NCBI GenBank assembly: GCA_964187785.1
Contig: OZ076409.1
Coordinates: 74,526,001-74,590,000 of the forward strand
Direction of reading: 5' to 3'
From: Amphiscolops sp. MND2022
Taxonomy: Eukaryota
DNA: 64,000 nucleotides
Both the position numbers and the translations under genes were made by a program. The first letter of the stretch is position 1. Each line of letters opens with the position of its first letter. Of the stretch, positions 1 to 64,000 are shown in pieces. The notes beneath the pieces are model-generated. The model was not told the origin of the DNA. It made no database searches and saw nothing but the letters and a program-made list of their open reading frames with translations.

Positions 1-2
1 GT

Positions 3-6471: not shown

Positions 6472-6485
6472 CATTTTTCAAACTG

Positions 6486-9936: not shown

Positions 9937-9982
9937 TGTGTGTGTGTGTGTGTGTGTGTGTGTTTGGTGCGTGTGTGTGTGT
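9937..9982. repeat. (TG)n microsatellite within a GT-rich low-complexity stretch
   Basis: A pure TG run at 9937-9962 and a second short run to ~9982. Confidence 0.95.
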
Positions 9983-10615
9983 ATGTTGTATGTGTTTGTC
10001 TGATGCGGGAGTGTGGGTATGTGGCTTTATTCAACTTTTCCCTATATTGTTTTCCAAGATTTGACATTTCTATTACTGCATTTTAAATAAAATATTTGGA
10101 TCTTTCAAAGGTCTTTTGCAAAATGATTTCTTTTTACTTTGTTATTCGTTTTTTCTTGAAAAAGAATAATATACTTTCTTTGGAGATACTTCACGAATTT
10201 TCATGTCAACAATCGTAATAAGTGAAATCAACAGAAGTTCTTTATGTATGTCACTTTACATGTTTACAGATTTGGAAAAACAAGATTGTCAATCAAAACT
10301 AGTATCATCTACAACAGAAGGCGAGTTACATTTTTACATGCGGCTCCAAAACCTCAAAATTCTATATTTCAGTTATCAATCTGAACATCGGTTGTTATTA
10401 TAAGTTTATCTTTTAAGACGTTTGTTATACATAAAATATTACGTAACATTTTCCAGAAGTTTGAAACATTCAATAGCTTTTCGAAACAATACATTTCCCT
10501 ATCATACATCAACGCCATATACTAACTTCAACGCACACCGTCTGTAGGCATGCCGAGGCATGCCTTTCGACGACCTATGCCCAATAAATTTAGCCCCGCA
10601 GTCATTCCCGGCTAG

Positions 10616-12018
10616 GTGGTCGGGTATTTTTTTTACTCGTATATGACGTTTGCGAGGCTTTGGGGAGGGCCCCGTGCCGAGCCTGTTCCGAAAATCGCCA
10701 CATGTAGAAATCTGGCACTAAAATGTGAGATCTCAAAAAGTAGCCGTTAGAATTCTCTGAAATTTTGCATGTGGCTCAGAATTAATGAGTAATGAAAAAG
10801 TGTAGAAGTGAAGGTCGCTGAAAAAATGGTCCTTGTTGCACTTTTTGCGCAATTTTTGTCTGATTGTTGCGTTTTTTATGTCATTTTCGACTTTTCAAGC
10901 AAAAAACTCATGAATGCTTTGTTCCTAGCGCATCAAGTGTGGAGCACGAAAAGTTGCAGCATCTCCAAGTGCGTATGCTGAGAAAATTTGGTTGCCGTCG
11001 GGTTACCCCCCACAGAGCTAGAGGGGTACTTCCGGTTATTTTTGACCCCCTAAATTAGGTAAACTGCTAATTTTTGTAATGAAGCCGTAGATTTAGCGTG
11101 TCCGCACCCTGCTGAAGTTTTGTTAAACATTTTGAGAGAGACCCAATGACATGTGTTCAGTTCACCCCCCATCACCCCCTTGACCGGAAATGAACGTTTT
11201 TGTGCACTTTCAGACCGGATGTCTCCATTTTCACCGGTAAGGAGGCCTTGTACGACCAACTAGCAGGATATCAAAATTGAAGTATAACCCAGGGTCAACT
11301 TAATGACCACGTGTTGTCCAGTCATGGGTTTTACTATGACCGGAAATGGGCTCAAAACCCCACTTTTAGTAGTTTTTTATCAATTTGAATAGTGTTTGGT
11401 CCACATTCAGGTGGCGTAAGTCACTTGCACCAGTGTGAGTATTAACTGCATGTTCCCTGCGTAGACGTAACTGACACTGTCAGATACCGGAAGTAACCCC
11501 ATGTGGCCGGAAGTGGTCAATTTTGACCGGAAATGGTCCAAAAAGTAGCGTAAAAGCAGTTTTTCACTACTTTTTAGGGACAATTTTTTTACTTTTTTTC
11601 AATCTGAATGCCTCCTTTATACTACCAAAGCTAACATCGTTGCCTGTTTTGCTAAAGATTTGGCAATTGATTACCTTTATCAACCCCGATAGCCTTCCAA
11701 GTTGACCTTGGGTCAATCTTGAAGGCTATCTATACTTAAAACAAAAAATCGAGATAAGTTGTTTTCTCCATTACGTTGATAATTTTTCCTTGATGTCAAG
11801 TTGTTAAGCAAAGACTTTTAAGCAAATTAATGATCTGAATCTTGTTCAGAGGTCTCACCCTGAAGAAGATTATTTGAGATTGAAGTAAACTGAGAATGAG
11901 GTTAGTATTTGTCAACATCAGAGAATCTTATCAACGCCCACCGTCTGTGGGCATGCCGAGGCATGCCCTTCGACGACGTATGCCAAATAGCGCCACAGGG
12001 CGCCCACACTTTTGCTAG
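10616..12018 (+). mobile_element. Array unit, ~1.4-kb 'ACCGGAAGT' family
   Basis: GTG...CTAG ends, a triple CCGGAA motif at 11486/11506/11526, a GATAGCC...GGCTATC hairpin at 11688-11730 and the palindromic core at ~11931-11980. Related to the units starting at 27133, 39611, 52034 and 62889. Confidence 0.6.
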
Positions 12019-13088
12019 GTGGTCAAGGGGGATGCCCATCAGAAAATATTGCGAGGCCGGGGAGGGTCCCGAGAGCCGAGCACATTCTATCAATTCCTAC
12101 CTTCAGGATTGCGAAGTATTTTAACCGATCTCGAAATTCACCCGTAGGATTTGTCTGAAACTTTGCATGTGGCTTTATCTCAAAAATTTAAGAACTTTTT
12201 TCTGCTGACGTTTTTCCAGGAAAATTCATTTTGTAAGGTTTTTTTGCGTTTTTTTGGTTTTTTTCATCTTTTTTCATCTTTGATTAATCAATGACCGAAT
12301 CAAAGGCCATTTTCACCATGAAGGAAAGCCCGTAGCGGCAAAGTGCACTTTTATGAAAATCATCAACGGTCAACGGTCTTTCGAACGGTCCAAAAAATTT
12401 TCCCCCCGGGGGAAACCAAAGTGCCAAAAAGTGCCAAATATATTTTTTTGACTGAATCACTTTGATCAAATTGATGATTTGAGCAGCCGGAACGGTCCGC
12501 ACGGTCTCGGACAATAAGTTCAAAAATTGTCAGCATCCAATGGAGGTTCCAAAAATGTAATTCGTTCACCTGTAGGAGACATCAGAAAAAAGTTGATTTT
12601 TTGGAGTTTTGGCATTATGACTGATCGGATGATAAATCATTGCATCACGTTGAGTTGCATTTGATGCAGCACACGAAGCAGCTGCAGCGAACTTGAAACT
12701 GCTTAGGGGGCTGGGGTTTACTATCTGTAACAAGCAAAATATCCCTTGGGCAAAAGGTATGCCAAAAAGTGCCTCAAAGTGTTAATTAAGTTGTTGCAAA
12801 TCGGCTAGCAAAATTCATTGTCACCGGTGTTCCGTGAGTTGCGCAGCATCTCGCGGGAACAACGGTGCTTGTTTCGAACGCAAAACCCAACATACCTCTT
12901 TGGTGACGTGACGGAGGTCACCATTGGCCTTTTTCGGCAGTGTGATGATATTTTTATTGTTGAATTGTGAACAACATACACAAAAGATTTAGCGTGGGAT
13001 ATTTGTTTGTGTCATACTTCAGTAACAAACTTTCAACCGTTTTGTTTAGGCCTCTACCTAGCAGTGCTCTAAATCGCTCCATCGCTAG
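12019..13088 (+). mobile_element. Array unit, singleton 1070-bp family
   Basis: Bounded by CTAGGTG junctions. It shares the 5' GAGGGTCCC hairpin and the GATCTCG...GGATTTGTCTGAAACTTTGCATG box, but the body is unique. It has its own hairpin at 12822-12867 and lacks the GGGCATGCC core. Confidence 0.55.
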
Positions 13089-16000
13089 GTGGTCCGGTAC
13101 ACTACCAACAAAACATTGTCGCGAGCAACGGGGAGGGTCCTGTAGCGAGCTTTATAGGAAAAAAACGGCGGAGCATATATACTAGGCAACATCGGCACTT
13201 TTACCCACGATCTCTGAAATGAACCATACGATCCGGCTCAAAATTTGCATACGGCTTCCTCTAGCGATTCTAAGAACTTTTCCCTACTGGCATTTTGCCC
13301 GGAAAAATCAAAATGTTGGTCAAAATCTTAATTTTAGGGTCAAAAAACGACGTTTTTTCAAAAAAATTTTTTTGAGAGCACATATCTCGCTCCCAGGTGC
13401 CCGGAGCGGGTCGCACGTGGAGGTTGATATTGCTAGGCACTTCGTAAGGAGTCCGTAGACAAATTTTCGTCCAGATCAGATTAAAATTGACTGAGTAATT
13501 GTCGAAATTCTGACGATTTTTCTCGAAATTTTTTCACACCCTAGTCTATCTCTGCCGTTTTTCGCCCAGATTTTTTTCCAGGACCTCTCCTAAAGGCCTC
13601 CCCTGGCCGGTTTACCTCCCAGAAAAACCATTTGGCCCTTTTGCCGCAGTTTCAGCGATCCAGGATTCCCCGGGTAAAAGTAAAATGACTTAGAATTTTT
13701 TCGAAAAATTTTCAAAAAATTTTTTTTCAACTTTAGGCCTCCCAAAGTCAAGAAACGTCCAAACAACTAGTATTGCAAGTGGATGCATGTGGAAAGTGCT
13801 CGAATAGACGAGAAAAATGAGCTATTATAAACCTCTGTAGCTTAACTTGACGTTGACTTATGACATTTTTAGTGTGAGCTTGCTACGTGACAAAAAATTT
13901 CAAAAAATGAAAGTGGAAGCTAAGTCTCATCGGAATACGTTCAGTGGACCCCAGCGCTGTTTAAATGCCGCTGTTTAGTGCAGCAACGCCCTTTAAGGTC
14001 ATTTGATCCATTTTTTACAGGTTTTGACACCGTCTTATCCATTCGAAAGTTCGAAAGAGTTGTGTACATTCCATCTCCCCCCTTCTATGGGGGAGATGGT
14101 AATGTACACGCAAAAAGCCAAGTACTACTGTTCTTTTTATACTTGGAGTGGCCTCGGCAATGCAGTAGCGGGAGCTCCAGGTCGTTTGCCGTAGCCTTAT
14201 TGTCTGTTTAGACTTTGCTACAACAGAAACTATGTTACTGAACATGAAAAAGATTGTTTCAATCCAAATGTTTTTTCAAATAATAATACCAAATAACACA
14301 TGTCCATATATCCACTATTGCCACTAAATACTGGCGCATCGTCGCACAACGAAGCCTGCAGCGCTAGGTGGCCGTGTCTTTTCGACGTGCTTTTGCATCG
14401 AGGAGTGGGTAGGGCCCCGCGACGACCTAGAAGAATTGGATGCTCACCGAAACGTGCAGAATTCTACGAGATCTCATAGTTTGAGCCATACGATTTTTCT
14501 GAAATTTGGCATGTGGCCTGGAATTGGTGAGTAGGTAAAACGTGTAGGAGGTGATTTTTCCCAAATTCCACTGTGAGACGAGATATGGGCAAATAACGGT
14601 CCCAAAAATGGCAAAAATGCACTTTTTTCAACTTTGTCAGCCCATATCTCGTTCCCAGGTTCCCGGAGCGGGACGCGTTAAGCTGATTATAAACTCTAGG
14701 GTGTTGAGGCTGTACGGGGAAGTCAGACCCGTTCCGATCGGACTTGTAGTCTTGGAGAAATAACGGTATTTTTGGGGAACCTTTTCTAACGGTCCAGCTT
14801 ATCTTTGCCATTTTTTCGAAAATGTACTCGCCTAAAGGCCTCCCCCTGGCCGAATTTACTCCCAGCAAAACCATTTGGCCCTAAATACGGAGTTTCAGCG
14901 TTCCAGCATTCCCGGGCGAAAAGTTGTGGGACTTGGAAAATTTTCAAAAATTTTCAAAAAATTTTTTTTTCGTTTTCCGGGCCCCCAATGAAGGGGAAAC
15001 GACCCCCCAACCAGTATTTTGAGTGAATTCATGTGGAAAGCCCTTGTTTTGACGAGAAAAATACCGTTTAGAACATCTTTTTATCTTGACTCAACGTTGA
15101 CTTATGACGTTTTGAATGTGATGTAAGGATGTAGGAGGCATGTGATAAGTTGATGTTTTGAGTCTTTATCTCATATGAAAGCGGTTGAGATGCAAGCTGT
15201 CCTGCTCAAAACGTCTTTCGTTGTAACTTTCCAGTGCACCAATACCCTTTGGTGTCATATAAACATACTTTTTGTCGATATATTAACAATTTTAATGTAT
15301 TTATTCCAATTTTTATTATCTTATAACTCAAAACAGTTGAGTACATTTCATCTCCCTTTCGGGGGAGATGAGAATGTACTCGCTAAAGACCTAGCGCCAT
15401 GACCAAAAATTTGAAACCCACGTTTTTTATCTTCTTACAGACTTGTTTTTGTATTTTTTCGGAATTTTTTATAAATTAATATACTTGAAATACATTACTT
15501 GACTTTACTACTACAACCCACCTCCAACGACAACGCCCCCCTGCTTGCATCAACGCCCACCGTCCGTGGGCATGCCGAGGCATGCCCTTCGACGACGTAT
15601 GCCAAATGCCCAGTGCCACGCAGTCATTATCGCTAGGTGCCCGGATTTCTATTCATTAAAGTATGTTGCGCGTGTGGGTAGGGCCCCTGGCGCGCTCTTG
15701 TGTCCCTGTTCTCATAACTGCAATTTCCGGCAGCATTCTGAGCGATTTTCTAAACTATCCATACGATTCGGCTGAAATTTGGCACACGTACCCCCCTCGG
15801 CACGGTGAAGATGATTTCCTACTGACGTTTTTCCCGCAAAATTTTTTTTGTTGTCCAAAATAACGGTTTTTGGGGTAAAATTTTGAATTTTTTTTAAATT
15901 TTATCTTATATCTCGCCACGGGTTTACGCTAGCGCTTCAAAACCCTGCTAAAGAAAGCTTGCAAACTGTCTCAGGAATGCTGTGTGAAATTTTCAGCTCA

Positions 16001-19000
16001 ATCGGACTCAAACTCGGGGAGATATAGCGTTTTTCCGGAGCGGGGGGGTTTCATTTTTCTAACGGTCCAGCTTATCTTTGCCATTTTTTCGAAAATGCAC
16101 TCGCCTAAAGGCCTCCCCTGGCCGGTTTTATTCCCAGCAAAACCATTTGGCCCTAAATACGGAGTTTCAGCGTTCCAGCATTCCCGGGCGAAAAGTTGTG
16201 GGACTTAGAAAAGTTCAAAAATTTTCAAAAAATTTTTTTTCCGTTTTCCGCCCTCCCCCCCTAGGGGAAAAGACCCCCCAACCAGTAATTTGAGTGAATT
16301 CATGTGGAAAGGCCATGTTTAGAGGAGAAAAATGCCGTTTAGAACGTCTTTTTATCTTGGCTCAACGTTGACTTATGACGTTTTGAAGGTGGTGTTTGGA
16401 GGTGTAAAGCACGCGAATAGTAAACGTTATGAGTATTTATCTGATCTGAAAGCCATTGAGATGAATATGGTTTGCTCAAAACGTAATTCATGGCAGTTTG
16501 GCAATCAATCAACACCCTTTGTTGTCGTTTGACATACTTTTTTGTTGTTATAATAAAAAATTTTGTGTATTTATTCATTTTTTTCTCATCAAATAACTTG
16601 AAACAGTTGAGTACATTCCATCCCCCCCTTCCGGGGGAGATGAGAATGTACTCGCAAAAAGCACCGAACTACGGCCCTAACCTTCCCGAGCTACGCAGTA
16701 TAAGGATTACATATTGGTTCCGACATTTTCATAGAGTTAAATCTTGGTAATCTGTCTGGATATGCAGAAAAACCAGCACGTGCTTTTTTATACCAAGTTG
16801 CTTACAACGACAATTATTTTATATCAACGCCCCCATATTTATCAACGCCCCCCGTCCGTGGGCATGCCGAGGCATGCCCTTCGACGACGTATACCAAGAT
16901 ATTCCCGAGCGCGGTAGCCGCTAGGTGGTCCGGTACACTACCAACAAAACATTGTCGCGAGCAACGGGGAGGGTCCTGTAGCGAGCTTTATAGGAAAAAA
17001 ACGGCGGAGCATATATACTAGGCAACATCGGCACTTTTACCCACGATCTCTGAAATGAACCATACGATCCGGCTCAAAATTTGCATACGGCTTCCTCTAG
17101 CGATTCTAAGAACTTTTCCCTACTGGCATTTTGCCCGGAAAGTTCAAAAAGTGGGTCAAAATCTTAGTTTTTTGGTCGAAAAATAGCGTTTTTTTGGAAA
17201 AAATTTTTTTAAGAGCCCATATCTCGCTCCCAGGTGCTCGGAGCGGGTCGCATGTGGACGTTGATATTGCTGGGCACTTCTTAAGGAGTCCGTAGACAAA
17301 TTTTCGTACAGATCGGATGAAAATTGACTGAGTAATAGCCGCAAATCCGACGAATTTTTCAGAAAATTTTGGTACACCTAGTCTATCTCTGCAGTTTTTT
17401 GCCCAGATTTTTTTCCAGGACCTCTCCTAAAGGCCTCCCCTGGCCGGTTTACCTCCCAGAAAACCCATTTGGCCCTTTTGCCGCAGTTTCAGCGTTCCAG
17501 GATTCCCCGGGTAAAAGATAAATGACTTAGAATTTTTTCGAAAATTTTTCAAATTTTTTTTTTTCAACTTCAGGCCCCCCAAAGTCAAGAAACTTCCACA
17601 CAACTAGTATTGCAAGTGAATGCATGTGGAAAGTGCTCGAATAGACGAGAAAAATGAGCTATTATAAAGTTCTGTAGCTTAACCTGACGTTGACTTATGA
17701 CAATTTTAGTGTGAGCTTGCTATGTGAGAAAAAATTTCATAAATTGAAAATCGAAGCTAAGTCTCATCGGAATACGTTCAGTGGACCCCAGCGCTGTTTA
17801 AATGCCGCTGTTTAGTGCAGCAACGCCCTTTAAGGTCATTTGATCCATTTTTTACAGGTTTTGACACCGTCTTATCCATTCGAAAGTTCGAAAGAGTTGT
17901 GTACTTTCCATCTCCCCCCTTCTATGGGGGAGATGGTAATGTACACGCAAAAAGCCAAGTACTACTGTTCTTTTTATACTTGGAGTGGCCTCGGCAATGC
18001 AGTAGCGGGAGCTCCAGGTTGTTTGCCGTAGCCTTATTGTCTGTTTAGACTTTGCTACAACAGAAACTATGTTACTGAACATGAAAAAGATTGTTTCAAT
18101 CCAAATGTTTTTTCAAATAATAATACCAAATAACACATGTCCATATATCCACTATTGCCACTAAATACTGGCGCATCGTCGCACAACGAAGCCTGCAGCG
18201 CTAGGTGCCAATCCCCCCCGGGATGCCACAGCTTCGAGGGCGGGGTAGGGCCCCCTGCCCGAGTCCAAATCCAACGGCGCTAAACTTCGCGCCTATAACG
18301 TAAGGCGTTTTCCATTTCTAGAGGCGATCTCGAAAACGGCCCTATAGAATTGGCTCAAAATTTGCATACGGCTTCCTCTAGCGATTCTAAGAACTTTTCC
18401 CTACTACCGTTTTGCCCAAAAAAATTTTTTTGTTGACTTATAGACAATTTTAGGTGCCGAAAATGGCGTTTTTTCGAAAAAATTTTTTTCAAGAGCCCAT
18501 ATCTCGCCCCCAGGTGCTCGGAGCGGGTCGCATGTGGACGTCGATATTGCTGGGCACTTCGTAAGGAGTCCGTAGACAAATTTTCGTACAGATCGGATGA
18601 AAATTGACTTAGTAATAAAAAACTTTGATTTGCATTTTTTCGAAAATTTCTGAAAACCCAGTCTATCTCTGCCGTTTTTTGCCCAGATTTTTTTCCAGGA
18701 CCTCTCCTAAAGGCCTCCCCTGGCCGGTTTACCTCCCAGAAAAACCATTTGGCCCGTTTGCCGCAGTTTCAGCGTTCCAGGATTCCCCGGGTAAAAGTAA
18801 AATGACTTAGAATTTTTCGAAAAATTTTCAAAAATTTTTTTTTTCAACTTCAGGCCTCCCAAAGTCAAGAAACGTCCACACAACTAGTATTGCAAGTGAA
18901 TGCATGTGGAAAGTGCTCGAATAGACGAGAAAAATGAGCTATTATAAACCTCTGTAGCTCAACCTGACGTTGACTTATGACAATTTTAGTGTGAGCTTGC

Positions 19001-22000
19001 TATGTGAGAAAAAATTTCGAAAATTGAAAATCGAAGCTAAGTCTCATCCAAAACTCATCGGAATACGTTCAATCCATATCAAAGCGGTTTGTTCCCAGTT
19101 GTAGAGTGCAGCAACACCATTCAAGGTCATTTGACCCACTTTAATAGGTTTTGACTTTGTCTTATCCATCCGAAAATTCGAAACAGTTAAGTACATTCCA
19201 TCTCCCCTCCGTGGGAGATGGTAATGTACTCGCAAAAAGCCAAGTATAACCGCCCTATTCTACCCGTAGTGGTGCTAGAAGAGCAGTAGCGTGAGCTCCA
19301 GGTTTGCAGTAGTCTCTATGTGTTATAATTATATTTTTCATAGCTAAAAATCTTACTAAACGTGATAAAAAAAATTACATCACTCAAAATTTTTTCAAAT
19401 ATTATTATATGTCCCCAATTGACGCACGTCAACTATTTCACTACAACCACCCTACCACCCGGCCCCTCGTATCTTTGTTCAACCGTACACGTCTAGGTGC
19501 CAAAACCCAATGGTTTGCCAAAGTTTCGAGGGCGGGGTAGGGCCCCCAGCCCGAGTCAAAAGTCGAAGACAAACAACTTAAGGCGATTGCTGGGATCTCC
19601 TATCGATTTTCTAAACGAGCCATACGATTTGGCTGAAATTTTGCATACGGCTTCCTATAACAATCCTAAGAACTAATCCCTACTGGCGTTTTGCCCGGAA
19701 AAATCGAAATGTGGGTCAAAATCTTAGTTTTTTGGTCAAAAAATGGCGTTTTTTTGGAAAAATTTTTTTTAAGAGCCAATATCTCGCTCCACAGGCCTCG
19801 GATCGAAAAGTGTACAATTGTTCGCGTGTTAGGCACTTCATGAACTGTCCGTAGACAAATTTTCGTCCAGATCGGATAAAAATTGACTGAGTAATAGAAA
19901 ACTTTGAAAGTGATTTTGACGACATTTTTCGAAAACCTAGTCTATCTCTGCCGTTTTTTGCCCAGATTTTTTCCAGGACCTCTCCTAAAGGCCTCCCCTG
20001 GCCGGTTTACCTCCCAGAAAAACCATTTGGCCCTTTTGCCGCAGTTTCAGCGTTCCAGGATTCCCCGGGTAAAAGATAAATGACTTGGTGGAATGACCTG
20101 AATGCATGTGGAAAGTGCTCGAATAGACGAGAAAAATGAGCTATTATAAACCTCTGTAGCTCAACCTGACGTTGACTTATGACAATTTTAGTGTGAGCTT
20201 GCTATATGGTAAAAAAATTCAAAAATTGAAAATCGAAGTTAAGTATCATCCAAAACTCATCGGAATACGTTCAATCCATCCCAAAGCAGTTTATTTCCAG
20301 CTATAGAGTGCAGCAACACCGTTCAAGGTCATTTGACCCATTTTAATAGGTTTTGACTCTGTCTTATCCATCCGATAGTTCGAAACAGTTGAGTACATTC
20401 CATCTCCCCTCCGTGGGAGATGGTAATGTACTCGCAAAAAGTCAAGGTCCTACCACCCTATTCTACCCGGAGTGGTGCTAGCAATGCAGTTGCGTGAGCT
20501 CCAGGTTGTTTGCAGTAGCCTTTACGTATGTTGTGACCATGTATTACAATTCTAACTCTGTTACTAAACATGAAAAAATTGTTTCAATCCCAAAAATTTT
20601 CATTTCAACTTTAGTATGTCACCAATAAACATATATGCATCTTTCCTACTACAACCACCCTACCACCCGGCCCCTTGTCCACTGTTCAACCGTGCACGTC
20701 TAGGTGCCGGTGTATTTTTACACAAAGGGGGATGTTGCGCGTGTGGGGAGGGTCCCTGACGCGCTTCCGTGGTTTCGGGTCTTCTAACCTATGATAGCGT
20801 GACACCTGACTTCGATCTCGTAAACTAGCCGTACGATTTGGCTGAAATTTGGCACACGTACCCCCCTCGGCACGGTGAAGATGATTTCCTACTGACGTTT
20901 TTCCCGCGAAACATTTTTCGTTGACCAAAATAACGGTTTTTGGGGTAAAATTTTGAATTTTTTTTAAATTTCATCTTATATCTCGCCACGGGTTTACGCT
21001 AGCGCTTCCAAACCTTGCTGACGAAACCTTGCAAACTGTCTCAGGAATGCGGTGTGAAATTTTCAGCTCAATCGGACTCAAACTCGAGGAGAAATAGCGT
21101 TTTTCCGGAGCGGGGGGGTTTCATTTTTCTAACGGTCCAGCTTATCTTTGCCATTTTTTCGAAAATGCACTCGCCTAAAGGCCTCCCCTGGCCGGTTTTA
21201 TTCCCAACAAAACCATTTGGCCCTAAATACGGAGTTTCAGCGTTCCACCATTCCCGGGCGAAAAGTTGTGGGACTTAGAAAAGTTCAAAAATTTTCAAAA
21301 AAAATTTTTTCCGTTATTTGGGGCCTCAAAGTGGGGGAAAAGACCCCCCAACCAGTAAAGCAAGTGAATGCATGTGGAAAGCCCTTGTTTAGACGAGAAA
21401 AATGTCGTTTAGAACGTCTTTTTATCTTAACTTGACATTGACTTTTGTCGTTTTGAATGTGACCGTTAGATACGGAAAATTGATGTTTTGAGTATTTATC
21501 CCATCTGAAAGCCATTGAGATACAACATGTTTTGCTCAAAACGTGTTTCATTGCAGTTTCGCTGTCCATTAAAACCCTTTGGTGTCTTTTCACGTAATTT
21601 TCGTTTCTATAATAACAATTTTTTTGTGTATTTATTCATTTTTTTCTCATCAAATAACTTGAAACAGTTGAGTACATTCCATCTCCCTTCCCGGGGGAGA
21701 TGAGAATGTACTCGCTAAAGGTCAGGAACTACGGTCTATATCTTCCACAACACAAAAGGGATTGCAAATGGTTTCAGTTTGTCGCAGAAAACTTCTTTTT
21801 GCCCTCTGTGACTCGACAAAATGAACGTTTCTTACTTACTTTGAAACTCAGCATACCACAACTCATCTCTAACGTCAGCGCCCCCCTACTTGCATCAACG
21901 CCCACCGTCCGTGGGCATGCCGAGGCATGCCCTTCGACGACGTATACCAAGATATACCTGGAGCGCGGTAGCCGCTAGGTGCCGGGATTTCTATTCGATA

Positions 22001-52033: not shown

Positions 52034-53421
52034 GTGGTTGGGGCGGTCCCCAGAACGCACAAGGAGGCGCGGGGAGGGTCCTGCGCCGACGTAGAATAAT
52101 TTCATATAATACTAGTATCCTACATGGGTGTTTTAGAGGCGATTTTGGAATCTAACCGTAGGATTTGGATAATTTTTTGCATGCGGCCATAACTCGAAAT
52201 TCTAAGAACTTTTTCCTACTGTCATTTTCCCCGCAAATTGTTTTTTGTTGACTTATGGCCGAAAAACCGGAAATAACGTCCTTTTTAGACGTTATATCCG
52301 AAGTGTCGTCATAACTTTTTTCCAGGGCATGCTAGCGTTCTCGTTCACTTTTACACTTAGTTGCAGCATCTCAAAATACAACTGGTGGAAATTTTTGGCT
52401 GCATTCGGATCACCCCCCACCGAGATAGAAGGGTTCCCCCCTCCAGTTTTACCCCCCAAATTTGCGAAAAAGCCAATTTTGAGCATGAAGCCGAGGATTT
52501 AGCGTACCCGCACCCTCCTGATGTTTTGTTGTACGTATTGGGATCAATCTGACGACATGTGTGGTTTTCACCCCCAACCCCCCCTTGGACCGGAAATGAC
52601 ACTTTTTTGTGTTTTTTGGCAGAATTTAGCCTTTTTCATTATTAGGCAGTCGTTTTAGGGACTCCTAGCAGGATATCGAAATTGAAATACAACCTGATCA
52701 CAACCCAGTGACAACATGTTGGCCACTTGGAGGTATCATCATGACCGGAAGGGAGGTCAAACCCCCCTTTTTGTGACCGCTTTTTGACCTTGTGCACAAA
52801 ACGCCAACAACGTGAGGCCTAATGACGCATTCAAATCTGTACAAAGATAGAACGTTAGACAAACGAAGTCCCGGAAGATCTTTAGCATATACCGGAAGTT
52901 ACCCCCCATGACCGGAAGTTACCCAATGTGACCGGAAATGGTCCAAAAATTAATGTAAAGTTGAATTTTTCACTATTTCAAGACGACTTAATTGAAACTT
53001 TTCAATCTCAAAACTAGCGTACTGGCTTGTTTTGCTGAATTTATGGAAATTGATGAGCTCTATCACCCCCGATAGCCTTCGAAGTTGACCTTGCGTCAAC
53101 TTTGGAGGCTATCGATACTGAACATGAACAACAAAGTACATTGTTGCTCTCGGTTTTTTCCCGTTGTTTTTCCTCAAACATTCTTGAGACATATACATGG
53201 CCGTTAGTTGAAATCAATATTTAGCCCATGTTATAGCTGGAGCAGCGAAACGTTACACAGACTAGTGTGGTTTTGAAATTACATTATTTAAATTAACAAC
53301 TGACCGTCTTAGTCAACTCCACACATTCATACCAACGCCCACCGTCTGTGGGCATGCCGAGGCATGCCCTTCGACGACGTATGACGAATCCACTCCAACG
53401 ACACCCCCACTCCGCCCCTAG
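52034..53421 (+). mobile_element. Array unit, 1388-bp ACCGGAAGT subfamily (copy of 39611-40999)
   Basis: Near-identical sequence; CCGGAA trio at 52891/52911/52931; hairpin at 53070-53114. Confidence 0.6.
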
Positions 53422-55774
53422 GTGGCCTGAAATTTTTTTTTCAGCAAAATCTTTGCCATTGGGGGAGGGGCCCCGGATGGCCAGTAGTACGGCATAGCTC
53501 CCTACGGAATCCAGGCGGAAAAAACGTGATTTCGGAAACTAGCCGTCAGAATTTGCTCAAAATTTGCATACGGCTTCCTATGACAATCCTAAGAACTAAT
53601 CCCTACTGGCATTTTGCCCGAAAAACGCAAAAAGTTGGTCAAAATCTTAGTTTTTTGGTCAAAAAATGGCGTTTTTTCGAAAAATTTTTTTTTTCAGAGA
53701 CAATTACTCGGAACTGGTTCACCTAGCGCAAAAACGCCTAGCTGATTTATTGTTGGGCACTTCATGAGGAGTGCGTATACAAATTTTCGTCCAAATCGGA
53801 TAAAAGTTGATTGAGAAATAACTGAAAATTTGAGGCATTTTTTTGGAAATTTTTGAAATCCCAGTCTATCTCTGCCGTTTTTTGCCCAGATTTTTTTCCA
53901 GACACTCTCCTAAAGACCTCCCCTGGCCGGTTTACCTCCCAGCAAAACCATTTGGCCCTAAATACGGAGTTTCAGCATTCCAGCAAACCCCGGGTAAAAG
54001 ATAAATGACTTAGAATTTTTTCGAAAAGTTTTCAAAATTTTTTTTTTCAAATTCAGGCCTCCCAAAGTCAAGAAACTTCCACACAACTAGGATTGCAAGT
54101 GATAGCATGTGGAAAGTGCTTGAATAGACGAGAAAAATGAGCTATCATACGACTCTGTAGCTTAACCTGACGTTGACTTATGATAGCTTTAGTGTGAGCT
54201 TCGTATGTGCTGAAAAAATCAAAGAAACCTAAAAGTCTTTTAAAAGTAATCAGAATACGTCCAATGAACCACAGAGCTGTTAAATAGCCGTTGTGCAGTG
54301 GAGCAACACCATTTAGAGTGTTTTGACCCATTTTGATAAGTTTTGATACGGTCTTGTTCATCTGATAGCACAAAACAGTTGAGTACATTCCATCTCTCCC
54401 CTTGTGGGGGAGATGAGAATGTACTCGCTAAAAGTCAGGTACTATAGCACCCATTTTGTTTTGTTCGACGCTAGTGATGCTATTGCACACAATACAATAG
54501 TTTTGTCAAATCATGTTTAACATGATGAATCTTACTATACCTTTAGTGTACGTTAACCTACTACTACAACATCGCATCCGTAACGTCAACGCCACATACT
54601 CGCATCAACGCCCACCGTCCGTGGGCATGCCGAGGCATGCCCTTCGACGACGTATGCCAAATAGCGCCACAGGGCGCAAACTTGTCCGCTAGGTGCCGGT
54701 GTTTTTTTACACAATGGGGGAAGTTGCGCGGTTGGGGAGGGTCCCTGACGCGCTTCCGTGGTATCGGGTCTTTCAACCGATGAAAACGACATAAAAAATT
54801 GGGATCTCGTAAACTAGCCATACGATTTGGCTGAAATTTGGCACACGTACCCCCCTCGGCACGGTGAAGATGATTCCCTACTGACGTTTTTCCCGCTAAA
54901 CATTTTTTGTTGCCCAAAATAACGGTTTTTGGGGTAAAATTTTCAACTTTTTTTAAATTTCATCTTATATCTCGCCACGGGTACACGCTAGCGCTTCCAA
55001 ACCTTGCTGACGAAAGTTTGCAAACTGTCGCATTCCCGGGCGAAAAGTTGTGGGACTTAGAAAAGTTCAAAAATTTTCAAAAAAATTTTTTTCCGTTATT
55101 TGGGCCCCCAAAGTGGGGGAAAAGACCCCCCAACCAGTAAGGCAAGTGAATGCATGTGCAAAGCCCTTGTTTAGAGGAGAAAAATGCCGTTTAGAACGTC
55201 TTTTTATCTTGGCTCAACGTTGACTTATGACGTTTTGAAGGTGATGTTTGGAGGTGTAAAGCACGTGAATAGTAAACGTTATGAGTATTTATCTGATCTG
55301 AAAGCCATTGAGATGCAATATGGTTTGCTCAAAACGTAATTCATGGCAGTTTGGCAATCAATCAACACCCTTTGTTGTCGTTTGACATACTTTTTTGTGG
55401 TTATAATAAAAAATTTTGTGTATTTATTCATTTTTTTCTCATCGAATAACTTGAAACAGTTGAGTACATTCCATCCCCCCTTCCGGGGGAGATGAGAATG
55501 TACTCGCAAAAAGCACCGAACTACAGCCCTTACCTTCCCGAGCTACGCAGTATAAGGATTACATATTGGTTCCGACATTTTCATAGAGTTAAATCTTGGT
55601 AATCTGTCTGGATATGCAGAAAAACCAGCACGTGCTTTTTTATACCAAGTTGCTCACAACGACAATTATTTTATATCAACGCCCCCATATTTATCAACGC
55701 CCCCCGTCCGTGGGCATGCCGAGGCATGCCCTTCGACGACGTATACCAAGATATGTTCGAGCGCGTTAGCCTAG

Positions 55775-57753
55775 GTGGGCGGGGGTAATTCCCCTTCAAA
55801 AAATTCGGCCGGCGGGTTGGGTCCTGCCGGACGTCAAATAGTGTGAAACATCCAGTAGGAAACGGCGACATAAATCAGCGATTTTAAAATTTAACCGTTA
55901 GAATTCGGACTTGGAGTGCATGCGGCCCCAAAATGCCCATACGAATCGAAGTTCCTGCTGACGTTAAGCGATAAAAACATTTTATAAAAAGTTATGGCCC
56001 ATTTTACGTTCACCTATAAGGGTAAAATGAGGAAAATTTTTACAAAGTCGCTGATAACTCAAAATACATTAATTTTTGGACTTTGACTGTGAAACAAGCT
56101 TAGAACCTTCATTTCGTGGCTGTGGCATTGCACTGAACACAAAAGATGTAAAGTTTTTACATTTTTTGAAAATTCGACATTTTTGATTTTTTTTCACTAC
56201 TATCAGTACACTATATGTCAAAAACACCTCTGAAAAAAATTTTTTATTTGCTTAAAATTGGAAACCTTGGTATCCATGGTTTCTGTCGGAACCTACTAAT
56301 TGCCAAACACCCAACAGTTTGCATCCAATGTGAAATTAAAATTTTTTTTGAGGTCTTAGGTGTTTCACAAGGATTTCTCAACTTAGTTTCAATTTACAAA
56401 TTGGTCATATTGAACACAATATTTTCATCGAGGCTTGTCGGCTATAACCTTAATGTTCTAGAACGGTCCCACTGGCAACGTAGGAACCATTTATAGTAAT
56501 AGAAAGTTTTAAAAAATTTTTTCATCCGGTCTTCGGTCATTTTTCAGTCATTCGGAACTTAACTTAGAAAAATTTCGATCAAAATACCCAATTTTGTCAG
56601 GTCGAAAATTCAAATTCAGATTTTTAAGCAAAATTATTAACTCTGACGTAACCCATGGGGCCCATGATACTCAAAACAACGATTGACACTGGTATCAATG
56701 GCTCCAATAACATATGACTCGCGATAAGACGTTATTTTGAGCAATACGTCTCAATTGAGGTAAAGATCTCGCAAACCAGCGATCACTGTGAAATGTGATT
56801 TCATCAAAAATTTACCCATTTTTGTCAATCACTATGTGCACAGAATGCGTAGGGTGCGTTTCAGCAATATAATGAGGTTTTTGAAGGCATCGAGTTGCTC
56901 AAGGGGTGGTATGAGACATTTTCGTCCCATGTACTACTGTATATTGCAAATTTTTTAGCCCATTATCTGAAAAACTAACTTGACAAAATACTTTCAACTA
57001 CTTTATTCAAATGTTACAATGTAGATGAACCCAGTGGTTGATCAGAAACTTTCATCTCTTTCGTTTTCCGAAATAATTCCCTTCGAATGTGTTACATTTG
57101 TAGCAGGAAAAAAACCGAAACTAAAAAATACGCGATTTTGCTGAGATAGAATCGCAACGGTTGCGCCTAAAATCTCTTTAAATACTTCTAACGCAACTTT
57201 ACGGACCCAAATTGATTGAAAATGCCATTCACAATGCTGACATGTGCTCTTTCTACGATCCTGGCTGGACAAGTTTTGCATTTTTTTCAAGTACCTGTTA
57301 ACTGAACATTGTGATAGCCTTTCAAGTTGGCCTTGTGTCAACTTGGGAAGGCTGTCACATCAAAAAACTGTCAACAAAAATACCACTCGTTTATAGGAAA
57401 TTGCTGTTGATGCCTAATTTTGTGATTCGATCATGTCGTGAGTTCCTTCCATCAGGTCAGCTAACAATTGGATTCAGTGTTTGATAAGAACAATTGATTT
57501 TTTTGACAATTTTCGTTTTTTCTTGCAAAGAAAAAGTACAAATAAACAATATAAAACAAAATTGTAACCTTTAGGAAGTTTAACTTTACCTTTTTTAACC
57601 GTTACGATCACTTTCGACCCTGTACGACCTCGCAATGTCCTTATTACAACGCCACATAGTGTAGCGACGCCCACAGTCTGTGGGCATGCCGAGGCATGCC
57701 CTTCGACGACGTATGCCGAATGCACTGCGGCTACGCCCGCAGTCACCGGCTAG
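55775..57753 (+). mobile_element. Array unit, singleton ~1.98-kb AT-rich family
   Basis: Head hairpin CCGGCGGG-TTGGGT-CCTGCCGG, unique body, GATAGCC-type hairpin at 57311-57358, core at ~57667-57714. Confidence 0.55.
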
Positions 57754-60700
57754 GTGCCCTAATCCATCGATTTGCTCAACACTTCGAGGGCAGGGTAGGG
57801 CCCCTTGCCCGAGCCAAAAAGTCGGATACTTACGACAGACAACTTAAGGCGATTGGGACAGTCTGACCCCGATCTTCTAAACGAGCCTATCGATTTGGCT
57901 CAAATTTTGCATGCGGCTTCCTCTAGCAATTCTAAGAACTTTTCCCTACTACCATTTTGCCCGGAAAATTTTTTTTGTTGACTTATAGACAATTTTAGGT
58001 GCCGAAAATGGCGTTTTTTTGAAAAAAATTTTTTAAGAGCCCATATCTCGCTCCCAGGTGCTCGGAGCGGGTCGCATGTGGACGTCGATATTGCTGGGCA
58101 CTTCGTAAGGAGTCCGTAGACAAATTTTCGTACAGATCGGATTAACATGGACTGAGTAATAGCCGAAATTCGGACGCATTTTGTCGACATTTTTCGAAAA
58201 CCTAGTCTATCTCTGCCGTTTTTTGCCCAGATTTTTTTCCAGGACCTCTCCTAAAGACCTCCCCTGGCCGGTTTACCTCCCAGAAAAACCATTTGGCCCT
58301 TTTGCCGCAGTTTCAGCGTTCCAGGATTCCCCGGGTAAAAGTAAAATGTCTTAGAATTTTTTCGAAAAATTTTCAAAAAAAATTTTTTTCAACTTCAGAC
58401 CATCCAAAGTCAAGAAACGTCCACACAACTAGTATTGCAAGTGGATGCATGTGGAAAGTGCTCGAATAGACGAGAAAAATGAGCTATTATAAACCTCTGT
58501 AGCTTAACCTGACGTTGACTTATGACAATTTTAGTGTGAGCTTGCTATGTGAGAAAAAATTTCAAAAATTGAAAATCGAAGCTAAGTCTCATCCAAAACT
58601 CATCGGAATACGTTCAATCCATACCAAAGCGGTTTGTTCCCAGTTGTAGAGTGCAGCAACACCATTCAAGGTCATTTGACCCACTTTAATAGGTTTTGAC
58701 TTTGTCTTATCCATCCGAAAATTCGAAACAGTTAAGTACATTCCATCTCCCCTCCGTGGGAGATGGTAATGTACTCGCAAAAAGCCAAGTATAACCGCCC
58801 TATTCTACCCGTAGTGGTGCTAGAAGAGCAGTAGCGTGAGCTCCAGGTTTGCAGTAGTCTCTATGTGTTATAATTATATTTTTCATAGCTAAAAATCTTA
58901 CTAAACGTGATAAAAAAAATTACATCACTCAAAATTTTTTCAAATATTATTATATGTCCCCAATTGACGCACGTCAACTATTTCACTACAACCACCCTAC
59001 CACCCGGCCCCTCGTATCTTTGTTCAACCGTACACGTCTAGGTGCCGGGATTTCTATTCGATAAAGTAAGTTGCGCGGTTGGGTAGGGCCCCGTGAGCGC
59101 GCCCGTGTCTGTGTTTTTTGAACCTGAATTTGCGGGTGCCAAAATAGACGATCTCCTAAACTATCCATACGATTTGGCTCAAATTTGGCATACGGGTTCC
59201 TGAGACAGATATAAGAACTAATTCCTACTGGCGTTTTGCCCGGAAAATTTTTTTTGTTGCCCAAAATTGAAATTTTCGGCAAAAAAATGCGATTTTTTTT
59301 GAAAAATTTTTTTTGAGAGGCCATAACTTTTTTCAGGGAGCCCGGAGCGGGACGCGTTAAACTGATTATAAACTCTACGGTTCATGGGCTGTACGGGGAA
59401 CCTATTTTTGTTGGAATCCGACTTGTAGATTTTGAGATATATTATCAAATTTGGGTGTTTTTTTTCCAATTTTTCGAAAAACCTGTTTTATCTCTGCCGT
59501 TTTTTGCCCAGATTTTTTTCTAGACCCTCTCCTAAAGGCCTCCCCTGGCCGGATTACGTCCCAGCAAAACCATTTGGCCCTAAATACGAAGTTTCAGCGT
59601 TCTAGCATTCTCGGGCGAAAAGTTGTGGGACTTAGAAAATTTTTTTTTAAAACGCAAAATGTGTAAAGTCAACTTCAAGCCTCCCAAAGTCAAGGAACTT
59701 CCACACAACTAGGATTGCAAGTGGATGCATGTGGAAAGTGCTTAAATAGACGAGAAAAATGAGCTATTATAAATCTCTGTAGCTTAACCTGACGTTGACT
59801 TATGACAATTTTAGTGTGAGCTTGCTATGTGAGAAAAAATTTCAAAAATTGAAAATCGAAGCTAAGTCTCATCCAAAACTCATCGGAATACGTTCAATCC
59901 ATTCCAAAGCGGTTTACTTCCAGCTATAGACTGCAGCAACACTATTCAAGACCATTGTACCCCTTTATATTAGTTTTGACATTGTATTATTCATCCGAGA
60001 GCACAAAGCAGTTGAGTACATTCCATCTCCCTTTCGGGGGAGATGAGAATGTACTCGCTAAAGAACAGGTACTACAGCCAATTTTTGTATTTATGCGAAG
60101 CCATTCTATGCTATTGCACATAACAACTATGCTATTGACTTAATTTTGCCTACACTTTGCTATGACATATGCTAAACGTTTGGTCCTTACAACAACATAC
60201 ACATGACTAACGTCAACACCACATACTGTTACCAACGCCCACCGTCCGTGGGCATGCCGAGGCATGCCCTTCGACGACGTATGCCAAATACCTTCCAGCG
60301 ACGCTCGCGCTCCCCTGCTAGGTGCCATAATCCATCGATTTGCTTATCACTTCGAGGGCAGGGTAGGGCCCCTTGCCCGAGCCAAAATGTCGGATACTTA
60401 CGACACTCAACGTAAGGCGGATGCTAAAGCGAGACCCCGATCTTGGAAACGGCCCATTCGATTTGGCTCAAATTTTGCATGTGGCTTCCTCTAGCAATTC
60501 TAAGAACTAATCCCTACTGGCGTTTTGCCCGGAAAATTTTTTTTGTTGACTTATAGACAATTTTAGGTGCCGAAAATGGCGTTTTTTTCGAAAATTTTAT
60601 TTCAAGAGCCCATATCTCGCTCCCAGGTGCTCGGAGTGGGTCGCATGTGGACGTTGATATTGCTGGGCACTTCGTAAGGAGTCCGTAGACAAATTTTTGT

Positions 60701-62888
60701 ACAGATCGGATAAAAATTGACTGAGTAATAGCCGCAAATCCGACGAATTTTTCAGAAAATTTTGGTACACCTAGTCTATCTCTGCCGTTTTTTGCCCAGA
60801 TTTTTTTCCAGGACCTCTCCTAAAGGCCTCCCCTGGCCGGTTTACATCCCAGAAAAACCATTTGGCCCTTTTGCCGCAGTTTCAGCGTTCCAGGATTCCC
60901 CGGGTAAAAGTAAAATGACTTAGAATTTTTTCGAAAAATTTTCAAAAAATTTTTTTTTCAACTTCAAGCCTCCCAAAGTCAGGAAACGTCCACACAACTA
61001 GTATTGCAAGTGAATGCTTGTGGAAAGTGCTCGAATAGACGAGAAAAATGAGCTATTATAAACCTCTGTAGCTCAACCTGACGTTGACTTATGACAATTT
61101 TAGTGTGAGCTAGCTATGTGAGAAAAAATTTCAAAAATTGAAAATCGAAGCTAAGTCTCATCCAAAACTCATCGGAATACGTTCAATCCATCCCAAAGCG
61201 GTTTATTTCCAGCTATATAGTGCAGCAACACCAGTCAAGACCTTTTGACCCATTTATATTAGTTTTGACACCGTCTTATCCGTTTGAAAGTTCGAAACAG
61301 TTAAGTACATTCCATCTCCCCTCCGTGGGAGATGGTAATGTACTCGCAAAAAGCCAAGTACTACCGCCCTATTCTACCCGGAGTGGTGCTAGCAATGCAG
61401 TAGCGTGAGCTCCAGGTTGTTTGCAGTAGCCTTTACGGGTGTTGTGACTATGCATTACAAGTCTAACTATGTTACTGAACGTGAAAAAATTGTTTCACTC
61501 CAAAATTTTTTTTCTACTATTTTATGTCATCAATTAAGATATATCCATCCATTTACTACTACCTACCCCATCACCCGCCCCCTCCACTATCTGTTCAACC
61601 GTACACGTCTAGGTGCCGGTGTCTTTTTACACAATGGGGGAAGTTGCGCGGTTGGGGAGGGTCCCTGACGCGCTTCCGTGGTTTCGGGTCTTCTAACCTA
61701 TGATAGCGTGACACCTGACTTCGATCTCGTAAACTAGCCGTACGATTTGGCTGAAATTTGGCACACGTACCCCCCTCGGCACGGTGAAGATGATTTCCTA
61801 CTGACGTTTTTCCCGCTAAACATTTTTTGTTGACCAAAATAACGGTTTTTGGGGTAAAATTTTGAATTTTTTTTAAATTTCATCTTATATCTCGCCACGG
61901 GTTTACGCTAGCGCTTCCAAACCTTGCTGACGAAACCTTGCAAACTGTCTCAGGAATGCGGTGTGAAATTTTCAGCTCAATCGGACTCAAACTCGGGGAG
62001 AAATAGCGTTTTTCCGGAGCGGGGGGGTTTCAATTTTCTAACGGTCCAGCTTATCTTTGCCATTTTTTCGAAAATGCACTCGCCTAAAGGCCTCCCCTGG
62101 CCGGTTTTATTCCCAACAAAACCATTTGGCCCTAAATACGGAGTTTCAGCGTTCCAGCATTCCCGGGCGAAAAGTTGTGGGACTTAGAAAAGTTCAAAAA
62201 TTTTCAAAAAAATTTTTTTCCGTTATTTGGGCCCTCAAAGTGGGGGAAAAGACCCCCCAACCAGTAAAGCAAGTGAATGCATGTGGAAAGCCCTTGTTTA
62301 GACGAGAAAAATGCCGTTAAGAACGTCTTTTTATCTTAACTTGACATTGACTTTTATCGTTTTGAAGGTGACCGTTAGATACGGAAAATTGATGTTTTGA
62401 GTATTTATCCCATCTGAAAGCCATTGAGATACAACATGTTTTGCTCAAAACGTATTTCATTGCAGTTTCGCTGTCCATTATCACCCTTTGGTGTCTTTTC
62501 ACGTAATTTTCGTTTCTATAATAACAATTTTTTTGTGTATTTATTCATTTTTTTCTCATCAAATAACTTGAAACAGTTGAGTACATTCCATCTCCCTTCC
62601 CGGGGGAGATGAGAATGTACTCTGCTAAAGGTCAGGAACTACGGTCTATATCTTCCACAACACAAAAGGGATTGCAAATGGTTTCAGTTTGTCGCAGAAA
62701 ACTTCTTTTTGCCCTCTGTGACTCGACAAAATGAACGTTTCTTACTTACTTTGAAACTCATCATACCACAACTCATCTCTAACGTCAGCGCCCCCCTACT
62801 TGCATCAACGCCCACCGTCCGTGGGCATGCCGAGGCATGCCCTTCGACGACGTATACCAAGATATACCTGGAGCGCGGTAGCCGCTAG
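57754..62888 (+). repeat. Run of 4 main-family units
   Basis: Junctions at 57750, 59038, 60318, 61609 and 62885. Confidence 0.9.
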
Positions 62889-64000
62889 GTGGAGGTTATT
62901 TTATAATAATTAAAGTGTTTTTTTCCGGAGTTTGTGGCTTTGGAAAAAACAAAAGGCGAGAAATTGGGCACTCCGGGCTGAACCGTATACACTCAAAATT
63001 CGCCCAATATTTATACGATCTCGAAACCCAGCCGTACGATTTGGCTGAAAATTTGCATGCGGCTAAAAAATCAGATTCTAAGAACTATTTCCTGCTGACA
63101 TTTTTTTGAAATTTTTGTGTACGTTTCCCCCCCGCCCCCTAAAGGGGTCAATTTTCCCCAATTTTGCACTTATGAGCCAAATTCTCAAAACTGGTGGATC
63201 TGAGCGTATTCCCGGCGGGGACAACTTTTAACGCGCGCTCCTCAGTAGACCTTTTTGACTTTTAACTTTGGTGGTACGTTCACCCCCCGAGGAGGAAATG
63301 GCGTTTTTGTGACTTCCGGTCGAGGCTTTTTTCACCCAAAAAATAGAATTAAGCCAATTTTGAGCAGGAAGGAGTGGATTTAAAGTGCCTGTACCCTGCT
63401 AAAAATTTGTTGGGCTTGTAGCGATATATCTCATACCAAGTCTGGTTTTCACCCCCAAACCCCCCTTGGGACCAAAATTCACCCAAACTTTTTTTTTCTC
63501 TGTTTGTAGTTTTTTTTGCAAAATGTCGTCATTTCCATGGGTAAGGAGTTGAATTAGGGGCTCCTAATAGGGTACCAATGTTCAAGTACACTTGCAGTGC
63601 AACTGAGTGACCCTTTTGGGGCCTCTCCTGTGTTCGGCGAGGACCGGAAGTGGTGTAAACCCCCCTTTTTTGACGTTTGTTGACCTTGAGACTCGCGCTT
63701 AGATGACGTTTATGTCGCGCAAATCCTACAAACCAGTATTAGGATGACATGCTAGCCTACTAGAGAGCACTAAGGGAAACTGTACTATACCGGAAGTAAC
63801 CCCCCGTGACCGGAAGTTGTCATTTTTGACCGGAAATGGTCCAAAACATAGCGTAAAAGCAGTTTTCATTGCTTTTAAAGTCAACTTATTACCTTTTCAG
63901 TCTGCGCGAGCTTGTCTTCAGATTCGTTTTTGTTGTCCGTGCACACTACAACAAATATACATCTGTAGAACTTTTGCTATAATATCGTCGGAGAGAGAAA
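62889..64000 (+). mobile_element. Array unit of the ACCGGAAGT family, truncated by the window edge
   Basis: The head closely matches 27133-27300. CCGGAA trio at 63789/63809/63829. 63790-64000 resembles 28021-28230. Confidence 0.55.

Follow-up and report, generated by a model that had tools for sequence, protein, structure and literature searches.

Helitron-like elements (HLEs) are generally divided into two clades, which insert at A|T or T|T targets (the bar marking the point of insertion), and a recently described ciliate clade. In the sections consulted of the papers cited here and below, canonical Helitrons (HLE1) run from TC to CTRR and are inserted between A and T (PMC4778049, PMC11417382), Helraiser forms circles in which CTAG is joined to the 5' end and which are then recut at that joint (PMC4778049, PMC5876387), and IS91 inserts in one orientation at CTTG or GTTC, carries CTCG as its own terminal tetranucleotide and makes no duplication (PMC13181058). 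Here we analyse a 64,000-nucleotide stretch ("the window") of the 1.07-Gb genome of Amphiscolops sp. MND2022 (GenBank assembly GCA_964187785.1, contig OZ076409.1; G000:C1:74,526,001-74,590,000 in our coordinates), most of which is an array of units joined at the heptamer CTAGGTG. We consider it probable that rolling-circle DNA transposons from a deep branch of the Helitron-like group form this array as a colony, and that they seed their own arrays by targeting resident junctions. We also lean, more guardedly, towards a wider proposal, in which a fourth major lineage of RepHel transposases, comprising hundreds of clusters and including the alveolate Perkinsus and uncultured eukaryotes, follows an IS91-like tetranucleotide rule, uses its own junction as attachment site, and serially builds shuffled arrays of up to ~6 Mb from 1-21 kb cargo.

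Between 10612 and 62885 the window holds 39 exact copies of CTAGGTG, all on the + strand, against a chance level of 1.16 per strand (maximum 5 in 200 shuffles of 10612-64000); a variant, CTGG|GTG at 46882-46888, is the fortieth junction. On the reverse strand the word occurs five times, once at 6296 and four times inside units. The junctions delimit 40 units, 39 of them complete (1070-2177 bp) and the last clipped by the window edge, which form 13 clusters (sizes 16, 9, 3, 2 and 2, and eight singletons). Counted over the 184 kb that surround and include the window, exact junctions number 108. A preliminary description of the window, prepared from its letters without database searches, had reported 40 junctions, 39 of them exact, in a single orientation and with neither spacer nor target duplication; our counts and inspection of the junctions bear this out. 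Its statement that the bodies of the families do not align went too far, as many 1.29-kb units from separate clusters align along part of their length and two internal boxes are found in 31/39 and 32/39 units. The array does not begin at 10612, where it had been made to start, the preceding sequence being already part of a junction-bounded 21,489-bp unit (Table 1). The units had also been called non-coding, which is right for the short ones, in which the open reading frame (ORF) map has no long ORF, and wrong for the long ones, which encode a transposase.

The heptamer is composed of the 3' end of one element (CTAG, with variants CTGG, CTTG and CTCG) and the 5' GTG of the next, because solo copies and array edges split the element from host DNA. 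The variant junction follows the same logic: relatives of the 2,016-bp unit that precedes it also end in CTGG, so the tetranucleotide belongs to the upstream unit. All 53 5'-end types start with GTG, as do the solo copies bounded by empty sites, and the general layout is 5'-GTG...CTNG-3', the 3' tetranucleotide being specific to the family (CTGG, CTAG, CTTG and, once, CTGC). The overall counts of ends (197/5/2) and loops (221/227) are partly circular, the same patterns having helped to define the junctions.

Two subterminal structures accompany these ends. The 3' palindrome is present in 29/39 window units, and its 28-base context has 4,919 exact copies genome-wide (control 0). The G-rich loop of the 5' hairpin is present in 38/39 window units; the loop is conserved, and the arms are variable and covary, with a pairing score of 5.82 in cis versus 4.29 ± 0.16 (maximum 4.80) when arms are swapped among 49 end types. 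This hairpin is a candidate transposase-binding origin. Within 29 representative units, CTNGGTG is absent from the top strand (0 versus 6.7 ± 2.8 expected) and occurs four times on the bottom strand versus 8.5 expected; depletion on the top strand would be expected if the word acted as a false end or target. Terminal inverted repeats were seen neither in the printed ends nor by self-BLAST, no dedicated search for repeats of 12-16 bases being included.

A genome search recovered solo copies, six among the first 100 listed terminal motifs (counted by eye). In all 12 distinct solo or array-edge sites the host flank 5' of GTG is CTNG (CTTG 4, CTGG 4, CTAG 3, CTCG 1), and the bases after the cut at solo targets are GTG, GTC, GTA, TTG, TTC, ATG or GAC. 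For two solos that lie in multicopy repeats, every paralogue fetched (7/7 and 6/6, chosen from 40 matches per solo) runs uninterrupted through CTTG|GT with no base gained or lost, one of the seven reading ATTG. Insertion thus appears to fall directly after host CTNG, and is exact and without target-site duplication. The same CTNG|GT boundary is seen in a metagenomic relative with a 31%-identical RepHel: between two contigs, similarity of 99.8% sets in exactly with GTA, which is preceded by CTGG in one contig and by CTAG in the second. One contig of this relative also carries a gene resembling the second ORF described below, as seen by eye.

The junction together with the 5' loop occurs at least 4,070 times in the genome (control 3). 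Fourteen 10-kb probes place the window in a large array of roughly 6 Mb on C1, starting near 70.455 Mb: element junctions are present in all nine probes from ~70.455 to 75.3 Mb, and no such junctions in those at 69.5, 70.0, 76.6 and 76.9 Mb. Many chromosomes also carry small arrays, made up of anything from a few units to some tens and flanked by host DNA at either end, and the same architecture recurs on at least five chromosomes that were read. The 21,489-bp unit matches the short units over ~980 bp at its start and ~100 bp at its end. Copies 98-99% identical to it, likewise bounded by junctions, are found at G000:C7:65.22 Mb and C1:71.35 Mb with different units beside them.

The preliminary description had named HUH/rolling-circle elements as a lead, and the enzyme gene does lie in the window, upstream of the array as then delimited. 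Autonomous members measure 12-21 kb and encode an intronless Y2-HUH/Pif1 transposase of 2,200-2,850 amino acids; RepHel of this type was within junction-bounded units at 8/8 loci examined. The 1-3 kb units appear to be their non-autonomous partners. The window's own gene has lost 17 bp near 2342, compared with an intact copy, and is thereby broken into two frames; its sister copies are single frames of 2,367-2,370 amino acids. Among the best 150 of 152 matches in a genome search with the Rep core, dozens have open frames of >2,200 amino acids, and C1:70.5-76.5 Mb holds 35 of these 150, all on the strand of the array (counted by eye). The C-terminal GIY-YIG domain scores in Pfam in related subfamilies, and in the window's subfamily it does not. 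That many of the transposase genes are intact, intronless and nearly identical suggests that they were active recently, and makes direct biochemical work feasible.

Downstream of RepHel, a second ORF is present at four loci; it was not found in the window by tblastn, and has no Pfam family. Its predicted fold (mean predicted local distance difference score 77.8) resembles the OB domains of RPA and MCM10 (Foldseek E 2.5e-5; structural alignment Z 9.3, root mean square deviation 3.7, 116 residues), and further OB-fold leads came from the Atlas, all under 0.9. The product is a putative OB-fold single-strand-binding partner, often present in autonomous members.

In the broad sense the RepHel appears to be Helitron-like, having both a Y2-HUH and Pif1 fusion and precise insertion without duplication. 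Its Rep is homologous to those of HLE1 and HLE2 (motifs 1-3 align; hhalign probability 98.5, 14% identity). RepHel does not match Helraiser, either in a sequence search (E up to 1) or with a profile (E up to 10); the host's own HLE1 matches Helraiser at 8.6e-193. DUF6570 is present in 5/5 full-length host HLE2 proteins and in 0/7 RepHel loci or proteins scanned from the lineage, complete and partial ones together. In quick, unrooted trees the lineage occupies a separate branch, both for Rep (approximate likelihood ratio support, SH-aLRT, 99; after de-replication 37 of 69 extracted lineage rows, 8 of 87 HLE1 and 8 of 10 HLE2) and for the helicase (SH-aLRT 98; 40 lineage, 5 HLE1 and 8 HLE2 rows). 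Motif 2 is of the GN type in 121/159 classifiable lineage proteins and never of the RG type, which is canonical (84/91); helicase motif VI likewise differs between lineage and canonical proteins, one form occurring in 61/199 versus 0/127 and another in 0 versus 55. At E up to 1e-30 the lineage comprises 346 protein clusters, with named members in Perkinsus olseni. No relatives were found in viral contigs or plasmids, and phage helicases match at 23-31% only. Among prokaryote genomes the one match, at 43%, is to a contig of 2.5 kb in a Poribacteria assembly, which we infer to be host contamination. That genome yielded no Pif1 to serve as an outgroup, which leaves the trees unrooted. Taken with a comparison to the Paramecium third clade through motifs read by eye, the lineage looks like a further clade beyond HLE1, HLE2 and that clade. 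In the literature searched, neither a RepHel-GIY-YIG clade whose elements run GTG...CTNG nor self-targeted mixed arrays are described; Repbase, Dfam and subscription journals lay beyond this scope, and a library entry is possible.

HLE1 elements share with the lineage the Y2-HUH and Pif1 fusion and, in part, a 3' end that is mostly CTAG or CTGG with an upstream palindrome (PMC4778049, PMC5876387, PMC11417382), as well as the apparent lack of inverted repeats, the absence of target duplication, an optional gene for single-stranded-DNA binding and the expectation of a precise end-to-end circle joint. The lineage differs from HLE1 in its 5' GTG instead of TC, its target CTNG| instead of A|T, its motif 2 and helicase motif VI, its C-terminal GIY-YIG and its mixed arrays of independent insertions. 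HLE1 ends in CTRR with a nearby hairpin; the lineage mostly has CTAG or CTGG but also uses CTTG and CTCG, and its palindrome is 45-65 bases away. HLE2 elements (Helentron, Helitron2) resemble it in a large intronless RepHel, an extra C-terminal nuclease and hairpins near both ends (PMC11417382), but the lineage lacks DUF6570, has GIY-YIG in place of the AP endonuclease, does not target T|T, and branches apart in both trees. One Sphagnum HLE2 family has captured a GIY-YIG domain yet keeps HLE2 ends (PMC11417382). An OTU protease domain occurs in some relatives of the lineage (P0019, P0020, P0046), as in some HLE1 and HLE2 elements. The host genome itself also carries HLE1 and several HLE2 families, scattered over its chromosomes (L114-L122); junction motifs were found at 0/9 canonical Helitron loci, a weak result, as the stretches compared may stop short of the ends.

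The nearest eukaryotic precedent for the logic of these arrays is the HLE of Paramecium, whose end CCAA matches its target repeat and which shares with the lineage a divergent RepHel, long ORFs, absolute orientation bias, non-autonomous partners and internal satellites (PMC13085455). In Paramecium, however, the copies are separated by telomeric C4A2 repeats (PMC13085455), whereas elements of the lineage abut, target each other and end in CTNG. Read by eye, Paramecium Hel01 has a canonical RG-type motif 2, YxxKYxxK and a tail of ~85 amino acids after the helicase (PMC13085455), where the lineage has GNLPHIH, YIAKYAAG and a tail of 236 amino acids; the string "GIY" is absent from the main text of that paper. 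IS91 has subterminal palindromes and circular intermediates (PMC13181058), and its rule that the target resembles the end is also followed by the lineage, whose words CTTG, CTAG, CTGG and CTCG overlap those of IS91. Its transposase is a small prokaryotic Y2 protein without a helicase, in contrast to the RepHel of ~2,400 amino acids; a plasmid search found no sequence link between the two, and the sections consulted of PMC13181058 describe no self-targeted megabase arrays. Replitrons are likewise eukaryotic HUH elements with short direct end repeats and oriented insertion, but they are Y1, lack a helicase and are allied to the Reps of CRESS viruses (PMC10288648), whereas the lineage is Y2 with Pif1. 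Finally, Rep of adeno-associated virus (AAV) is described at AAVS1 as an HUH-helicase initiator that prefers a chromosomal copy of its origin (binding plus nick site) as target; unlike the lineage, it has an SF3 helicase, is viral and builds no arrays. AAV integration junctions are imprecise.

By analogy with the HUH chemistry of Helraiser and IS91, the transposase would nick an element's top strand where its 5' end follows CTNG, one strand would be peeled off, and a second cut would be made after the 3' CTNG. The circle would then close with the joint CTNG|GTG and insert after a target CTNG. A resident junction would be a copy of the origin of the circle, consisting of CTNG|GTG plus the 5' hairpin, and the enzyme would bind and cut it much more efficiently than CTNG alone in host DNA, just as AAV Rep uses an origin-like chromosomal site. 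If the resident junction mimics the origin and each insertion creates one more preferred site, a single founder insertion could seed a growing, shuffled array on the same strand, with occasional internal recombination and rare block duplications overlying serial insertion. Units indeed show a strong preference for the junctions of their relatives, and one family, of 3.07 kb (159 copies), prefers its own, as 10/30 fetched copies come after their own family's end.

If this model is true, the elements would be self-propagating, programmable-looking site-specific integrators of 1-21 kb cargo, and would offer a route to satellite-like or centromere-like DNA without unequal crossover, a worked case of megabase arrays formed through serial site-specific insertion. 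An HUH integrator able to deliver 20 kb without a scar to a self-renewing defined site would be of interest to genome engineers, and the thousands of natural junctions, the solo sites and the covarying hairpins make the recognition code testable. The lineage would also add a deep branch whose end rule matches that of bacterial IS91, which bears on the origin and target choice of eukaryotic rolling-circle elements.

An alternative account, which we think unlikely, would have the elements prefer a short word such as CTAGGTG within attracting chromatin (centromere or other heterochromatin), the hairpin being irrelevant to target choice. Solo targets do loosely resemble the junction, one very large array contains many of the intact transposases, and in other taxa Helitrons are concentrated at centromeres (PMC13404089). 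However, solos are rare among the listed terminal motifs and CTAG itself occurs at only 3/12 host flanks, the small arrays on many chromosomes are flanked by host DNA, and a word blind to family would not give the preference of the 3.07-kb family for its own CTGG|GTG.

The same elements might instead have formed arrays as rolling-circle read-through concatemers or by tandem duplication, shuffled later by unequal crossover and gene conversion, with targeting confined to CTNG, a history that strikes us as quite unlikely. It has precedent in plants and bats, from which tandem arrays of Helitrons and junctions joining them head to tail are recorded (PMC5876387), and would account for the same-family runs of 3.07-kb units, the one duplicated block, the mild clustering of relatives and the chimeric units. 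Concatemers, however, predict identical neighbours. Although 50/111 units have a near-identical relative elsewhere, 0/110 neighbouring pairs are near-identical, and adjacent 3.07-kb pairs (n = 10) differ at 6-83 of ~1,450 sites, being as diverged as distant copies (non-adjacent median 59.5). Nor should crossover focus on one base: in paralogous 250-bp windows compared at >= 98.5% identity, near-identity continues over junctions in 6/130 and 10/161 pairs (5-6%), versus 334/363 and 229/249 (~92%) at 300 bases before the junction. The 21-kb unit is junction-exact amid differing neighbours on two chromosomes, and the two copies of the duplicated block differ at a junction by one whole unit (Table 1), which has a twin (12-mer share 1.00) 77 kb upstream among other neighbours. 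The units are thus independent single arrivals that prefer like junctions, and not concatemers.

These data bear on much of what the preliminary description had said about assembly of the array. The same unit does occur amid different neighbours, the next unit differing in 47/48 near-identical pairs, and a shuffled multi-family array built by site-specific insertion agrees with the unit gain or loss, the continuity and the neighbour data. Breakpoints concentrate at the junction and are not scattered, so that similarity does mostly stop at the heptamer, as had been stated, with some internal recombination besides. Of the proposal that modular elements excise and insert at their own junction, precise and oriented insertion one by one stands, and nothing favours excision over copy-and-insert. 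The array resembles no described satellite or RNA-gene repeat, judging from 0 Rfam matches to the window and the dissimilar neighbours.

The integron label fares worse. A fixed recombinase that moves cassettes at one attachment site, with transposase units as passengers, would fit the seamless, oriented and shuffled units, their conserved folded end and the presence or absence of whole units at a junction, but we find it most implausible. Integron arrays have a tyrosine recombinase, attI and gene-bearing cassettes, whereas the long ORFs scanned here encode RepHel and the OB-fold protein and no other recombinase, and the short units hold no genes. Moreover, RepHel itself moves as a unit, and thousands of copies imply copying. 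Units also insert alone at host CTNG, and these solo insertions already go most of the way to refuting the idea. An assembly artefact, a collapsed or scrambled repeat, is just as improbable: the window does lie within a multi-megabase repeat and one small array flips at a 200-N gap (L038), but units differ from their neighbours at many sites, long ORFs are intact, empty and filled sites are exact, and the architecture recurs across chromosomes, with the boundary rule kept in another organism.

Several observations weigh against serial insertion at resident junctions or blur its details. The cut could be one base earlier (CTN|G), every flank carrying G there; one solo ends in CTGC (L128), and the 5' end of a further solo (L032) was not found. 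The pairs of the continuity test are not independent, and because continuity falls to just 53-58% at some internal offsets and chimeric units exist, homologous exchange appears to act as well. Related clusters adjoin above chance (33 versus 20.4 ± 3.1), which local copying could also give. First units of arrays match other copies at 94-99% and last units at 24, 58, 92 and 99% (four of each), identities that favour neither direction of array growth and neither side of the resident, 5' or 3', as the one recognised. The window's own transposase copy is frameshifted. The case as a whole is built from sequence; neither circles, transcripts nor enzyme activity were observed, nor were differences from one individual to another.

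Table 1. Features of the window, in window coordinates.
Feature	Position	Strand	Basis or remark
3' half of the 21,489-bp autonomous-type unit (GTG...CTAG)	1..10615	+	Unit starts 10,873 bases before the window
RepHel, N-terminal part with HUH motifs 1 and 2	1..2372	+	Pfam Helitron_like_N, 29.1 bits; 1,110 bases of the frame precede the window
RepHel, C-terminal part: two-tyrosine motif 3, Pif1-type helicase, degenerate GIY-YIG-like tail	2326..5985	+	Pfam PIF1, 37.7 bits
296-bp tandem repeat in two blocks (1.27-kb duplication), inside the autonomous unit	6602..8931		Repeat search; copies compared
3' subterminal palindrome (example copy)	10547..10564	+	~45-65 bases upstream of the junction
First junction CTAG|GTG in the window	10612..10618	+	One element ends here and the next begins
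Array of 40 head-to-tail, apparently non-autonomous units in 13 clusters	10616..64000	+	Junctions and clustering
5' subterminal hairpin (example copy)	10652..10682	+	G-rich loop ~36-47 bases from the unit start
2,016-bp unit with variant end CTGG	44870..46885	+	Relatives carry the identical end
Duplicated block, filled copy of four units	46886..52033	+	Unit comparison
Whole unit at a junction of the filled block, missing from the empty block	48175..49462	+	Block comparison
Duplicated block, empty copy of three units	57754..61612	+	Unit comparison

The 296-bp repeat of the autonomous unit, which parallels the satellites inside Paramecium Helitrons, was, apart from small repeats, all that Tandem Repeats Finder returned for the window (period limit 500). 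The reverse CTAGGTG at 6296-6302 (- strand) lies 310 bases past the transposase stop, lacks a 5' loop and recurs in four copies of the autonomous unit; it may be due to chance or be an old inverted end. We rejected it as an element end, as all copies continue to the position equivalent to 10615. The part of the 21-kb unit that precedes the window contains degenerate TTAGG/TTAGGC-like repeats (L001 ~6000-6350, 4.0-3.65 kb before the window) and a near-perfect palindrome of 300 bp (L001 ~2000-2300, 8.0-7.7 kb before the window) that may be a small element nested there.

The unit at 29049 in the window and related 2.2-kb units have a degenerate second 3' palindrome ~200 bases before the end, which suggests capture of a new end, and at G000:C10:36.40 Mb (L023 1-4300) unit modules are repeated in tandem, with a period of ~900 bp, inside one unit. 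One solo unit (L037 4615-5869) sits in a young multicopy repeat with long ORFs, similar to a long terminal repeat retrotransposon (at least 40 copies, 98-100% alike).

Further big clusters of transposases and units lie at G000:C2:102-104 Mb, C3:2.4-3.9 Mb and C1:37.9-38.1 Mb, some of them in both orientations. The small array that switches orientation at the 200-N gap is at G000:C1:23.977 Mb, and five reverse-strand junction words occur at C1:76.05 Mb (L084), near the end of the large array. One sequencing contig set gave short pieces and one low-depth contig that links the end of a unit to the start of another, which we did not use as evidence. Among the autonomous members, the unit at C10:36.4 Mb has an ORF of 275 amino acids immediately upstream of RepHel (L023 8602-9426), and one subfamily has altered catalytic motifs, motif 2 reading QHYH and motif 3 YLTSY, in long frames that are intact (L027 2108-3718, L030 3257-4867).

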